Positions 6,500-61,973 of a stretch of DNA of 64,000 nt are shown here, one piece after another. The stretch is from a virus (taxonomy: Duplodnaviria > Heunggongvirae > Uroviricota > Caudoviricetes). A program made the position numbers and the translations under genes. Location: IMG/VR virus record IMGVR_UViG_3300029615_000411, positions 55,874 through 119,873 of that record. One strand, given 5' to 3'. The notes beneath the pieces are model-generated. The model had not been told where the DNA came from and did no database searches. It was given only the letters and a program-made list of their open reading frames with translations. The first letter of the stretch is position 1. Each line of letters begins with the position of its first letter.

Positions 6500-6648
6500 C
6501 AAAAAATAGCAGTCACCCTGCATGAAGAGGATGACTGCTAAAATCAGATTTTGAATATAAGATAAACTTTTCTGTCGTTACCAGATAGAATAAAAGACTA
6601 TGATTTATCTTATATATTGAATTATATGTACTTTGCAGCAAATAGCAA
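6500..6648 (-). promoter_or_regulatory. Class I promoter-leader-terminator cassette
   Basis: TTGCTA-N16(TGCTGCAAAGT)-TATAAT, then hairpin 6507-6540 plus T-tract before the RBS. Confidence 0.8.
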
Positions 6649-6684
6649 CAAAAAACCGCCCCGCAATAAGCGGGACGGCATGAG

Positions 6685-7038
6685 TTACTTTCGACTCTCG
6701 AAGATTTCCTTTACGATGGCAAAGGCAAAGTCACCATATGCGCGTCGTTCGGAACTTCCGGTGTAGATTTTTTCAACGTTGACGGATTCAGCCAGACGAT
6801 TGGCAAGATTGACTGCATCGATAAACGCGTTATGCGCACGCGTTCTTGCGGCATCAGTCTGGCTTACTCTGTCACGATAGTCCTGACCCTTTAAGCCTTG
6901 CATGTTTCTGACAGAGCATTCCATCTCCGTTACGGCAGCAACGTATTTTCCGGCGTTAATGACAACGCTTTCCACGTCTTCCTGCATATCCACATCAACA
7001 GCGGAAGCGAGTTTTTCGATTCTTTCAATGTTACTCAT
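6685..7038 (-). CDS. Helical hypothetical protein (DUF3232-like), paralog 1
   Basis: D..RT.AH..FI..VN..NR motif shared with 7140-7532. Confidence 0.7.
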   Translation of the reverse strand: MSNIERIEKLASAVDVDMQEDVESVVINAGKYVAAVTEMECSVRNMQGLKGQDYRDRVSQTDAARTRAHNAFIDAVNLANRLAESVNVEKIYTGSSERRAYGDFAFAIVKEIFESRK

Positions 7039-7139
7039 GATTGTCTCCTTTTCGCTATGGCTTTTCTTATATTATACCACAACAGGAGGCACAAAAAAAG
7101 CGCCTGCCCGTGAGGGAAAGCGCTTGTCTGAGGAGAGAA

Positions 7140-7532
7140 TTACCACTCTTGGAATTCACCTAACTCAGCTGCCTCTGCAACCTTCTTGGCAAACGAGTAG
7201 TAGCTCTCACGGTTGTCCTCGTCAACATCAGCGACAGGCGGAATACCGATGTTGGCACAGATTTTGTTAAGCATGTTAACATCAATCATGAGCCCTTCAT
7301 GTGCTGTGCGGCGATTCATGTCGAGAGTCTGAACTCTGCGACGAAAATCCTCAGCATCCATGGTCTCGCGAGCCGTTCGGATGTTCGCTTCCATGCGGTC
7401 GACCATGCCGACATAATTGCGGCACAAGTCAACTGTATCCTTGACATCTTCAACAAGGTCACAGTTGTCTTCGTCGGCACGAAGGGCGCAAACGAGGTTG
7501 TTCAGGCGGGTGTAAATGTTCGTATTTGTCAT
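7140..7532 (-). CDS. Helical hypothetical protein (DUF3232-like), paralog 2
   Basis: GGAGG RBS; D.NRRTAH..L...VN.LN motif. Confidence 0.7.
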   Translation of the reverse strand: MTNTNIYTRLNNLVCALRADEDNCDLVEDVKDTVDLCRNYVGMVDRMEANIRTARETMDAEDFRRRVQTLDMNRRTAHEGLMIDVNMLNKICANIGIPPVADVDEDNRESYYSFAKKVAEAAELGEFQEW

Positions 7533-7732
7533 TGCAGTGTACCTCCAGTACATAAATTTATTTTTTGTTTTTTCTTTATTTCTTTCGCCAAATCACTTCA
7601 GCGCTGCCACTCGATGAGTGGTTTTATAAATAAAACATCGAATCGCTCCGATGAAACCACTCAAAAGAGTGGATTATATAATCCGCGTCCCCGCATCGCG
7701 AATTCGTCTTGCGACGTGAAAAACAAAAATAA

Positions 7733-7860
7733 AAACAAAAAAGCCGCCATCTCGTTTGAGATAGCAGCTTTAAAGCTGATTATAAATTACAGCGTGGCTC
7801 GTTAAGGAGTGTTTTATTTTTGTGATGTCTTGAGTATATTTACTTTGCAGCAAATAGCAA
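7733..7860 (-). promoter_or_regulatory. Class I promoter-leader-terminator cassette
   Basis: TTGCTA-N16-TATACT; hairpin GCTGCTATCTC/GAGATGGCGGC plus T-tract. Confidence 0.8.
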
Positions 7861-7915
7861 GTATTTTTCTAAAAAAGTTTTCAAAAAATAGCTGCCATCA
7901 CTGGCAGCTATCATC

Positions 7916-59972: not shown

Positions 59973-59976
59973 AAAA

Positions 59977-60618
59977 TCAATCCTCCACAATAGTTTCAAT
60001 TTGCAGAATTCGAGTATAGCAGGAACCGTGATTTCCGTAAATCCCGTAACCGCCATCCTCATATTCCTTGCTTTCATCTTCCGTAACGTCACGGACATCC
60101 TGTACACCGGGCATAGACTCCGCATGAAGAAAATCAACAGCCTTATCTACTGCGTCACAGGAGTTTAATGCACGAACAATGACATTCATAGGCCATGCAA
60201 GCCCACTATCGACAGTTACCTTGTAGATATTGTTGCCATCCCACGCATCACCATTGGCAAGATAAAGGTTTTCACCGAAATACCATCCGTTGGCATACGG
60301 ATAAATGGTCTCAAGACCAAAATGCTTAGCAATTTCGCCAAGCCGTCCTTCCTGCATCACAAGACCATGACTGTCCTGCAAGTTGGTAAAGGACGAAATT
60401 CGTTTCAGCACGGCATTCTCGGAATGCATATCACGGATAGTCTCTTTGATAACCTCATCGATTTCATCCCATGTACTGGCGTCCACGATGAATACGGTGT
60501 TATCGCTGTATTCAAGTGCCCAAATGGCGTGATTTTCTTTCTTCACATCCTTCGTAGGAAGGAAAACAACATTGTTAATTTTAAAAGTGTCATTACAAAC
60601 AGAAATCGGCATACTCAT
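59977..60618 (-). CDS. Hypothetical protein
   Basis: AAGGAG RBS. Confidence 0.75.
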   Translation of the reverse strand: MSMPISVCNDTFKINNVVFLPTKDVKKENHAIWALEYSDNTVFIVDASTWDEIDEVIKETIRDMHSENAVLKRISSFTNLQDSHGLVMQEGRLGEIAKHFGLETIYPYANGWYFGENLYLANGDAWDGNNIYKVTVDSGLAWPMNVIVRALNSCDAVDKAVDFLHAESMPGVQDVRDVTEDESKEYEDGGYGIYGNHGSCYTRILQIETIVED

Positions 60619-60647
60619 AAAATTACGCTCCTTTTTTACTTGTTTGG

Positions 60648-60757
60648 CAACAAAAATACCGCCACCTCTTACGAGATAGCGGTATATCGATTTTGAATTT
60701 TTGCTGCCTTTTATTTATCGGATATACTTAGTATATTGACTTTGCAGCAAAAGGCAA
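60648..60757 (-). promoter_or_regulatory. Class I promoter-leader-terminator cassette
   Basis: TTGCCT-N16-TATACT; TTCAAAATCGAT-ATACCGCTATCTC/GAGGTGGCGGTAT-TTTTGT. Confidence 0.85.
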
Positions 60758-60775
60758 GAAGACTGCGCTGCAGGC

Positions 60776-61849
60776 TTATCTTGCGAACAGCTTTTTCACC
60801 ATACTGGCAGCATTATCGCCTTCTGCCGAACCCTCTAACTTACTGGCAACGAAATCAACGACAGCCATTGCCATCCAATTTTCGGTTCCATACATTTCAA
60901 ATGCTTCTTTGCGTGCATCACAATAGGTGAACGCAACAGCGTTATTCAGAATCGCCATGCCCAGAACTTCATTGACATCGTCTGTCGTGTAATTACGCAA
61001 AAATGTCTCTAAATCAGACATTTCTTCGTCTGCCGTCTCCTTGATATTGTTTTCGAGCCAACGTTTCGAAATGGCTACGGTTTCCTCTACACTTTCATAG
61101 TCTTCATCGACGCAGCGGGTCAGAAATACGGCCTCATCCGGACCAAGATTTTCATCCTCACTACGCGAACTTGTCACGGACTTTTTGAAAAGCTCAGGAA
61201 CTTTCTCCGTTCCCATTTCGCCGATGATGTACTGTTTGGCGTCGTCAAAACTCGAAAAAGACTTGTAAGAGCTCACATACTCCAAAGACCTAAACTTGTT
61301 CTCAGCTATATCGATAATAGCTTCTGACAAGGAGGTTTTTTGGGGATGTTTTTCATCCTCAAGGGAAAGAAGCAGCAGTTTACGCAGTTCTCGGATATCG
61401 AGCGCATCAAGGTTTACGAATTCATGAACCGCCATAAAATCATGGTCAGTGATTTTGGTGATGGCATAAAATTCGAACTCTTCTGTACCGAATTGACGAC
61501 GGCACTCAAAATTGTCCGCATCAATCAAATACCACCGGGTAGCCTCGCGTTCTACCTTACACAGTGCTTCCGAGAGCTCCAACAGCATACGCTTGATGGC
61601 ATCTGCATCATCAAGAAGCTCCCGCAAACCCGGCGCACCAGACATACCGAGGTTTTCTTTTGCGTGCTCTTCCGGGTCAAAGTCATTCGCGTAATCAAAT
61701 ACCTCATCACAGAAATTCAGTTTTGGAACGGTGAAATAGAAATCTTCACCAGCAGGACTGCCCTGACTTAATTCAACGGTATCGTTGTCATCATAAGACA
61801 CAGACCAACCAAGTTCCTCCCATTTTTCCTCAAACTGATACAAAAACAT
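60776..61849 (-). CDS. Acidic hypothetical protein
   Basis: 357 aa ORF; SPAGEDF motif. Confidence 0.75.
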   Translation of the reverse strand: MFLYQFEEKWEELGWSVSYDDNDTVELSQGSPAGEDFYFTVPKLNFCDEVFDYANDFDPEEHAKENLGMSGAPGLRELLDDADAIKRMLLELSEALCKVEREATRWYLIDADNFECRRQFGTEEFEFYAITKITDHDFMAVHEFVNLDALDIRELRKLLLLSLEDEKHPQKTSLSEAIIDIAENKFRSLEYVSSYKSFSSFDDAKQYIIGEMGTEKVPELFKKSVTSSRSEDENLGPDEAVFLTRCVDEDYESVEETVAISKRWLENNIKETADEEMSDLETFLRNYTTDDVNEVLGMAILNNAVAFTYCDARKEAFEMYGTENWMAMAVVDFVASKLEGSAEGDNAASMVKKLFAR

Positions 61850-61864
61850 ATTTTATCCCCTTTC

Positions 61865-61973
61865 CAACAAAAAACCGCCATCTCTCACGAGATAGCGGTA
61901 TATCGATTTTGAATTTTTATTGTTTTTTATCTATCGGATATACTTAGTATATCGATTTTGCAGCAAAAGGCAA
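61865..61973 (-). promoter_or_regulatory. Class I promoter-leader-terminator cassette
   Basis: TTGCCT-TTTGCTGCAAAATCGA-TATACT; near copy of 60648-60757. Confidence 0.85.

Follow-up and report, generated by a model that had tools for sequence, protein, structure and literature searches.

A recurrent promoter and leader-terminator cassette on a Hodor-type gut megaplasmid and a possible read-through factor

A repeated promoter unit on the minus strand

The stretch of DNA analysed here, called the window in the following (64,000 nucleotides (nt), positions 55,874 to 119,873 of IMG/VR record IMGVR_UViG_3300029615_000411), carries on its minus strand a repeated unit composed of a promoter with a fixed box in its spacer, a short leader and, in most copies, a predicted intrinsic terminator ahead of the first gene. 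The contig of the window (G000, 240,696 bp) was compared with a sister record (G001, 346 kb) and with records of another group (G002, G003 and G005). The unit is real and element-wide, it heads about 40-55 gene groups per plasmid, and its architecture is conserved across deeply diverged plasmids. A first-pass annotation had listed sixteen minus-strand copies in the window and had supposed an element-wide spread. All sixteen were recovered within 1 nt of the positions it gave, 14 with the exact spacer box TGCTGCAAAGT in promoter context and two with one mismatch (28396-28406 and 61955-61965). Three other one-mismatch matches in the window, at 3150 and 21092 on the plus strand and at 10878 on the minus strand, lack the promoter context. 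On the whole contig the exact 11-mer occurs 40 times on the minus strand and not at all on the plus strand. Moreover, a weight matrix of -35, spacer and -10 finds 47 sites above 17 bits on G000, every one on the minus strand, and none above 11 bits in five of five Markov-3 random genomes, which confirms the spread; counts by copy given below for G000 refer to 46 box promoters. The sister record has 56-58 cassette copies.

The promoters of the window follow the pattern TTG(C/T/A)nn, 16 bp, TA(T/C)(A)(A/C)T in 16 of 16 copies, as had been proposed, with the addition that the -35 hexamer may also begin with TTGA and that the copy at 57940 has GTG at this place. Across G000 every copy has a TTG-like -35, a spacer of exactly 16 bp and a TAnnnT -10. 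If the start site is taken as 7 nt past the -10, the 11-mer spacer box lies at -26 to -16 in the 46 copies. Past the -10 follow, in this order, box1 (about +3 to +13, its consensus RA(T/A)ARRT(A/C)A covering about +5 to +13), box2 (TTCA(A/T)AATC) and, 6-19 nt after box2, a hairpin of 11-18 bp with a T tract. The hairpin starts at +22 to +102 and the whole unit measures 100-190 bp; in the short-class leaders box2 is found at +28 to +32 and a 5' helix is absent. A terminator scan predicts hairpin and T tract in 14 of the 16 window copies (dG -13.7 to -24.6, ends at about +62 to +150) and none at the 28397 and 57940 copies. This is the number given in the first-pass annotation, albeit the hairpin of the 12102 copy is weak, far from the promoter and not of the family, leaving 13 clear terminators.

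All features named in this and the next paragraph lie on the minus strand. The long-class cassette at 6499-6648 (-35 at 6648, spacer box 6630-6640, -10 6621-6626, then box1, the 11-bp 5' helix P1, box2 at 6547-6554 and a terminator at 6507-6540) heads a gene of 894 amino acids (aa) with a VWA domain by Pfam. Cassettes at 7727-7860 (spacer box 7842-7852, terminator 7735-7776) and 10547-10697 (spacer box 10679-10689, terminator 10555-10584) head DUF3232 genes and open reading frames (ORFs) of 68 and 51 aa, respectively. At 11939-12119 a box promoter (box 12101-12111) is without box1 and is followed only by the weak atypical hairpin (11947-11984) before a 345-aa ORF. The cassette at 18919-19102 (spacer box 19084-19094, terminator 18927-18971) heads a 112-aa ORF and an SLT gene, and the one at 21290-21424 (spacer box 21406-21416, terminator 21298-21335) a 591-aa ORF that is GHKL-like by eye only. 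Two short-class cassettes come next, at 23391-23503 (spacer box 23485-23495, box2 23435-23442, terminator 23399-23434) and at 25584-25694 (spacer box 25676-25686, box2 25626-25633, terminator 25592-25622), the latter with an operon that includes an HD-domain gene. The cassette at 27607-27749 (spacer box 27731-27741, terminator 27615-27654) heads a DUF4379 gene in an operon including NADAR, while the box promoter at 28278-28414, with its one-mismatch box, has no box1, box2 or T-tract terminator ahead of a 165-aa ORF.

The gene nrdD (28796-31018) is headed by the cassette at 31051-31179 (spacer box 31161-31171, terminator 31059-31085). At 54364-54459 (spacer box 54441-54451, box1 with TACGAT, terminator 54372-54404) the unit heads a 208-aa SSB-like ORF and an AAA_5 gene, and the short-class cassette at 54848-54958 (spacer box 54940-54950, terminator 54856-54886) lies in front of a CRISPR leader. 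Downstream of the latter, at 54501-54668, is a mini-array of three repeats, with a repeat that recurs in the arrays next to the type I-C cas genes of the plasmid. The box promoter at 57888-57957 (box 57939-57949) has a 36-nt leader with neither box1 nor terminator and heads a 291-aa non-specific endonuclease gene. The short-class cassettes at 60648-60757 (spacer box 60739-60749, box2 60689-60696, terminator 60656-60685) and 61866-61973 (one-mismatch box, terminator 61874-61899) are 90% identical to each other. Of the targets named in the first-pass annotation, Pfam supports nrdD, VWA and AAA_5 and the three repeats support the CRISPR leader; for the single-stranded DNA-binding protein (SSB, 208 aa) and the GHKL ATPase (591 aa) there was no match in Pfam or PHROG, nor, for the 591-aa ORF, in NCBIfam. 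The former is a putative SSB by its acidic DDLPF tail and the latter a putative GHKL ATPase by an ExxxNS motif.

Several smaller observations belong to these loci. The VWA gene (CobT-like, 3799-6516) and the AAA_5 gene (MoxR/CobS-like, 51631-53577) are 45 kb apart and both their operons are cassette-headed. CRISPR mini-arrays with 2-3 repeats each are found at 54501-54668 and 55470-55570 of the window and at 202.1-202.3 kb and 220.8-221.0 kb of the contig; the same cassette and leader are common to three CRISPR arrays, and the type I-C set is without cas1 or cas2 matches. An orphan hairpin of the cassette-terminator family (3463-3488, minus strand) precedes a degraded HTH_38 (IS30-like) fragment and has no promoter of its own.

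Could these repeats be mobile modules, serving as recombination handles or punctuation, homogenised by gene conversion and read by no factor acting in trans? T4-like phages carry comparable PeSL units, about 50 combinations of promoter and stem-loop per genome that head variable genes (PMC2839356, PMC4122927), and here some copies are 79-90% identical, sister records differ by indels bounded by cassettes (breakpoints near 66.6, 82-84 and 110.4 kb) and target sets differ between groups. However, the median identity among window copies is 55% with the 11-mer invariant, which argues for selection on a binding site. In addition, as far as PeSLs are described, their stem-loop lies within or upstream of the promoter, stops upstream transcription and comes with no invariant spacer box (PMC2839356), whereas the cassette hairpin lies 40-140 nt downstream and would block the unit's own transcript. 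We consider mobile modules an improbable explanation.

The host element

The contig is classed as a virus in IMG/VR, yet it encodes Rep_3, ParA/ParB, a ParM-like actin, VirD4 and a pilin, together with surface proteins of 2,650 and 7,321 aa, a type I-C cas set and tRNA genes that form an array with a tmRNA, and no phage structural genes were found among the contig proteins scanned. The sister record, with 95-98% identity, contains the 100 kb that the contig lacks, VirB4 among them. The hallmarks described for Hodor megaplasmids, namely Rep_3, ParA/ParB/ParM, VirB4/VirD4, surface proteins of >7300 and >2600 aa and a size of >300 kb (PMC12934698), are found in the contig and the sister record taken together. 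The G+C content is 44.6%, and VirB4 and VirD4 are 48% and 40% identical to those of G002. As these values match those of the Hodor groups, the window contig appears to be part of a conjugative gut megaplasmid of Hodor group G2, and G002 a member of group G1. No close relative of Rep was found in PLSDB. The plasmid has 24 tRNA genes and a tmRNA (tag DTNRYAAPIAA), in the window at 35607-39807 and 47253-49600 on the minus strand. Thousands of human gut samples have yielded Hodor elements, and for three G2 genomes paired metatranscriptomes are listed (PMC12934698). The main text of the Hodor preprint does not contain the words promoter, terminator, regulat- or sigma (PMC12934698), and no description of the cassette was found in the literature or in the Hodor text and supplement, the figures of the supplement and part of the file lying outside this search.

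A recoded counterpart in the other group

A de novo count of words in G002 reveals a different repeat with the same architecture and a 16-bp spacer. It has TGCGAA where the window has TGCAAA, box1 in the form GTACGATAGATA, a 5' helix, box2 as TTCA(C/T)AAT and a different terminator family. On the minus strand there are 65 such copies in G002, 58 in G003 and 31 in G005, while the backward pattern used as control gives 0 matches. The nrdD genes of the two groups are 95.5% identical, yet each carries the resident cassette type, the homology ending at the ribosome site. Copies of the foreign type are decayed, having lost the terminator and being followed by a native promoter. One lies at 12120-12217 of the window (minus strand; genome position 68090), directly upstream of the native promoter at 12119, with a TGCGAG spacer box, eroded box1 and box2 and no terminator, and the mirror case exists in G002. 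At contig position 46682, corresponding to 42368 of G001, a foreign-type promoter has a foreign box1 in G001 and a native-like one in G000, possibly a conversion under way.

Species genomes gave 34 single-locus matches, almost all of them chance, and L013 alone had two copies with a cassette-like leader; L013/L283 is a 1.7-kb contig of a metagenome-assembled genome with two native-type boxes. In Lactobacillaceae (L016-L019, L021, L023, L026, L030, L036-L038, L041 and L043) one common promoter has the same 11-mer and a 16-bp spacer without leader terminator, probably a coincidence.

The position of the box inside the promoter is the usual one for a repressor, and by column counts it overlaps an imperfect dyad (TTTGC-T-GCAAA). 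It could therefore be imagined that the cassettes form an establishment regulon (zygotic induction), the spacer box being the operator of a plasmid repressor that is absent in a fresh recipient and the terminators being fixed, leaky dampers or insulators. Many targets are DNA-metabolism and cargo genes, and the transfer region is without cassettes, none of the 56 on G001 lying between 321.7 kb and 23.1 kb. A precedent is described for p576, where EGeRS2 promoters bear operators of Reg576, and more generally several plasmid operons of the pLS20 family have a repeated element in front of them (PMC8708921). Nevertheless, strong terminators of 11-18 bp right after the promoter would blunt a burst of expression; no account is given of box1 and box2 or of their link with the terminator; the TGCGAA of G002, at -23 to -18, is not a dyad and yet keeps its position to the base; and the targets include such essential-looking ones as nrdD, thyX, a ligase operon and CRISPR arrays. 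In the published description EGeRS2 has about five copies, compared with about fifty here, and no leader terminator, and EGeRS1 is an element of 400-600 bp that has no sigmaA promoter and blocks read-through, as opposed to the 100-190 bp of the cassettes with their -35 and -10 boxes (PMC8708921). An establishment regulon is thus unlikely, if somewhat less so than mobile modules. Antitermination and attenuation are known from other Gram-positive conjugative elements, in the form of ConAn/cATT of pLS20 and canT of Tn916 (PMC13401043, PMC11658703). These are described as single long RNA elements at the conjugation operon, in contrast to the short, multi-copy cassettes outside the transfer region.

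Leaders and terminators

In the terminator stems 41 G-U pairs face 3 A-C pairs, and the stems therefore appear to fold as sense-strand RNA. An intrinsic terminator between promoter and first gene is predicted in 39 of the 46 G000 copies, and its presence goes with box1. All copies with box1 have a terminator (35/35 in G000, 33/33 in G002 and 19/19 in G005), as compared with 4/11, 9/32 and 3/12 of the copies without it; box1 was defined after looking at the data, which makes p-values for this association optimistic. A -10-like hexamer at -1 to +7 is likewise found in 31 of 39 terminator-bearing versus 1 of 7 terminator-less copies in G000, in 37/42 versus 12/23 in G002 and in 17/22 versus 1/9 in G005; among ordinary promoters 7 of 27 have it. 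In G002 and G005 this hexamer is fixed as TACGAT at +3 to +8. Box2 also takes a -10-like form, xAxxxT, in 26/31, 30/32 and 16/18 copies of G000, G002 and G005, and hexamers of the box2 type precede 26 of 40 cassette terminators versus 11 of 79 other intergenic terminators in G001 and 25/40 versus 14/82 in G002.

A second class of promoters, TTGAC-17-TGTGGTATAAT, lies ahead of tRNA arrays, parA and other genes. Leader terminators are absent from the 27 copies tested, the weak hairpins at 5 of the 27 falling mostly within coding sequence. This second family, also written TTGAC-17-TGTGGTATAATATAA, counts about 30 members per contig and occurs on the minus strand of the window at 9968, 17335, 32395, 37298, 40094, 40776, 42840, 47123, 49897, 51589 and 58328. 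Inspection of the sequence ruled out a single-stranded DNA promoter of the Frpo type, there being no duplex between -35 and -10, and also a role of box2 as an additional promoter, as neither a -35 nor a TG precedes it. Rfam gave no family at gathering score in the window besides tRNA and tmRNA, and in three cassette-rich 20-kb loci the best match, 39 bits, was below its cut-off of 105.

The first-pass annotation had offered as an alternative that the terminated leaders act in their own right, as related small RNAs by which a protein is sponged. A 5'-terminal helix and a strong 3' hairpin would indeed stabilise RNAs of 60-150 nt. Against this, the leaders have only two short boxes in common, and most units stop a short way ahead of a ribosome site and an operon's first gene, with no further promoter found in the interval; the alternative is a weak one and we regard it as highly improbable.

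A candidate factor

Among the core genes common to both groups is one for a 353-aa protein (contig 141265-142326, outside the window), 28% identical across groups, which is present in all five records that hold its region and has 162 homologs. It lies in a plasmid core operon that in G002 and G005 is headed by a terminator-less box promoter, and the gene of a 151-aa partner is located upstream of it. The protein itself matches no Pfam or NCBIfam family; its neighbours in the ESM Atlas are ArpU and DUF1492 (0.92), its C-terminal 160 residues resemble ArpU/DUF1492, and short homologs match DUF1492 at E-values of 2e-6 to 0.1. In 88 genomes of the class of G008, eight have only short homologs of this C-terminal domain. 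In the predicted fold (pLDDT 90.8) the C-terminal domain aligns with sigma region 4 domains (best Z 6.6), and the match to Q21 (Z 5.6, root mean square deviation 4.1, 97 of 147 residues) has the longest stretch of any row; for the whole protein the Q21 fold gives Z 4.2, and AlpA is not among the structural matches listed. Both groups thus encode an ArpU/DUF1492-like protein with a putative sigma-region-4 fold as the likely candidate for the factor, and its structural likeness to Q21 is suggestive and no more.

The helix-turn-helix (HTH) of this protein is not the same in the two groups. G002 and G005, which have the spacer box in common, carry an identical one (whole protein 81%). On L282, a Hodor-like contig, the candidate is 55% identical and a variant box, TGCAGAGT, is seen once; homologs with 52-65% identity (P0002, P0004 and P0005) exist as well. 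Since this variant gave only 3 single matches in IMG/VR, the covariation of HTH and box rests on two groups.

ArpU and DUF1492 belong, with RinA, LtrA/sigma70_r4, LtrB (the DUF1492 member) and LtrC, to the Ltr superfamily of Gram-positive phages (PMC3753634, PMC13123087), which the candidate resembles in its C-terminal 160 residues. The Ltr proteins described there are small and recognise direct repeats upstream of a single terS promoter beside their gene, whereas the cassette site is single, lies in the spacer and is present in many copies. No terminase was found among the plasmid proteins scanned, and the layout with direct repeats right after the gene and ahead of a terS late promoter is absent.

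A 626-aa XRE-HTH protein (L158:13529-15406, plus strand; G001 313529-315409), absent from the contig fragment of the window, was also considered. Its residues 110-160 resemble the clamp coiled-coil of the RNA polymerase beta-prime subunit (NCBIfam rpoC, E 8.5e-8; beta-prime in the PDB, E 3e-4), the tip APDI is kept or varied (APYI, APFI) over 73 loci, and in G002 the gene is under a spacer-box promoter. Given the roles of the binding residues, it could be a sigma or NusG decoy. As the factor it was set aside, because alleles 80-87% identical occur beside the promoter type of the other group, so that the protein does not track the box.

Read-through or activation

How would a plasmid use promoters that are followed by their own terminators? 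The most economical reading is that the majority of these promoters are blocked by their leader terminator and would need a plasmid factor, and we tentatively favour termination by default with factor-dependent read-through in the manner of Q or AlpA. The host sigmaA would fire the cassette promoters, transcripts would by default stop at the leader hairpin, and box1, perhaps also box2, would act as sigma-dependent pause elements. A plasmid protein, probably the 353-aa ArpU/DUF1492-like one, would bind the spacer box and load onto the paused RNA polymerase as lambda Q and AlpA do, permitting read-through. The same factor may act on initiation too, which would account for box promoters without terminator. 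Throughout the plasmid, DNA metabolism, recombination, CRISPR arrays, cas genes and cargo would then be expressed in a second wave, beside a separate class of strong consensus promoters without leader terminator.

The cassettes share with Q, Q21, AlpA and GafZ, as far as these are described, an element between -35 and -10 (PMC9388147, PMC9371919, PMC7969949, PMC11150451), as well as an intrinsic terminator, here a predicted one, 40-100 nt downstream. A -10-like pause hexamer in the first transcribed bases also belongs to those systems; the hexamer is clear and fixed in G002 and G005, and in G000 it occurs at varying offsets. Of the Q21/AlpA fold, with its N-terminal nozzle and C-terminal HTH, the candidate shows a C-terminal HTH and a partial match to Q21. 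For AlpA an element at -25 to -20, a pause hexamer CACGAT at -1 to +5 and a terminator from +54 are reported (PMC7969949, PMC9371919); the gap between element and hexamer is 18 nt, as compared with 19 nt in the G002 cassette. The first-pass annotation had drawn its analogy to lambda N/nut or Q. Of the two Q fits better, since there is a DNA box in the spacer, an early -10-like hexamer and no fixed boxB-like loop. Q and AlpA are described with one or two targets on proteobacterial phages or chromosomes, whereas here 40-65 targets lie on a Firmicutes plasmid and the candidate gene is non-adjacent and encodes a protein of twice the size. The cassette may be said to work like a Q/AlpA cassette but is not filed as one, because the gene is non-adjacent, the fold match partial and the hexamer offset variable.

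A number of observations weigh against this reading. Neither box1 nor terminator is present in 7 of 46 G000 copies, 23 of 65 in G002 and 9 of the 12 box1-less copies of G005, and a pure loading site needs no such copies. The offset of the hexamer in G000 is not fixed (-1, +2, +3 or +6), and the A-rich background makes such hexamers common. Cassettes possess an additional box2 and RNA helices, for which Q-type systems as described have no use. The Q21 match is on a par with those to generic sigma4 folds and falls short of the trust level of the tool, and a Foldseek search of the candidate against PDB and BFVD returned nothing at E<=0.001. In G000 the promoter of the 353-aa gene is without spacer box and in G001 no cassette is found within 10 kb of the gene, unlike Q genes, which lie beside their cassettes. 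Ortholog pairs that are cassette-headed in both groups (3 of 143, p=0.70) are not above chance. There is also a second candidate, a 212-aa protein (contig 149458-150096; L005:12461-13096, minus strand) with CxxC...CxxC and a C-terminus that is sigma4-like by eye; this 211/212-aa protein is 66% identical between groups and has no sigma match in Pfam, PHROG and NCBIfam scans. By length and appearance it is taken to be the 212-aa 'sigma-70 family' cluster that the Hodor supplement lists in 11 of 11 G1 genomes (PMC12934698). Finally, the characterised ArpU, RinA and DUF1492 proteins are described as activators that bind repeats upstream of a promoter (PMC3753634). The earlier proposal of factor-dependent leader termination thus gains from the stem pairs, the co-occurrence of box1 and terminator, the recoded counterpart, the decay of foreign copies and the sigma4-like candidate, and loses from the copies that lack both box1 and terminator.

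Part of these observations would be expected of a control in two tiers, in which a sigma4-like plasmid activator at the spacer box turns on poor promoters with a 16-bp spacer and an RNA attenuator at box2 gates most of them. Terminator-less box promoters are common, and known activators are found in the ArpU family. In the attenuator tier, box2 would form a hairpin of 3-6 bp that overlaps the 5' arm of the terminator and is stabilised by an RNA-binding protein. RNA-binding proteins of the BglG/LicT type at their RAT elements, and of the ANTAR type, stabilise a hairpin that overlaps the 5' arm of a terminator. In all three sets (31, 32 and 18 copies in which box2 could be located, each identical pair entering once and a few mis-parsed copies being kept) complementarity between the terminator base and the end of box2 exceeds that of permuted pairings, with scores of 7.2 versus 5.94±0.32 in G000 (0/5000 permutations) and of 10.24 versus 8.97±0.32 (0/5000) and 9.61 versus 8.49±0.36 (p=0.002) in the other two, and the two partners switch together (CG<->CG versus CTG<->CAG/CGG). 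In long-class leaders the 5' end pairs, with compensating changes, with the stretch right before box2 (score 13.6 versus 11.3 permuted and 9.8 shuffled; short class 6.6 versus 6.5). Both pairings, too, count against a purely Q-like mechanism. Taken by itself, the mini-hairpin at box2 is predicted to be stable in 30 of 32 copies of G002 (median -4.4 kcal/mol), but in the window's group it folds in only 11 of 31 (median 0), with a loop of 2-12 nt and no fixed sequence. Moreover, as the copies are related by duplication, no more than 2-4 independent changes may underlie the covariation. A Pfam scan of 329 plasmid proteins (six long or boundary-spanning ORFs being left out) gave no recognisable RNA-binding antiterminator and no CAT/PRD or ANTAR match, the leaders have no Rfam match, and no convincing intergenic antisense match to box2 or the stem resembling a small RNA was found. 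Control in two tiers appears possible though doubtful, and it stands close behind Q-like read-through.

A more far-reaching version of Q-like read-through is that in these Firmicutes plasmids a single ArpU/DUF1492-related protein recognises the box of its group in 40-65 promoters, loads onto RNA polymerase paused by sigma and so gives access to most of the accessory genome, that factor and box co-diverge and that genes swapped between the groups need the resident cassette. It would also suggest that the ArpU/DUF1492 'activators' are the counterpart of Q21 in Gram-positive bacteria. This is conceivable, although we would rather doubt it in full.

Implications

The two natural variants of box and candidate protein make specificity directly testable. 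Even under the attenuator alternative the leaders would constitute an undescribed leader-RNA family, of which >200 examples have been collected. The variants would also offer an orthogonal promoter-terminator switch for gut Firmicutes. If Q-like read-through holds true, a large plasmid would time the expression of its whole cargo, CRISPR arrays and cas genes included, in a novel manner, with about fifty promoters under one DNA-loaded antiterminator.

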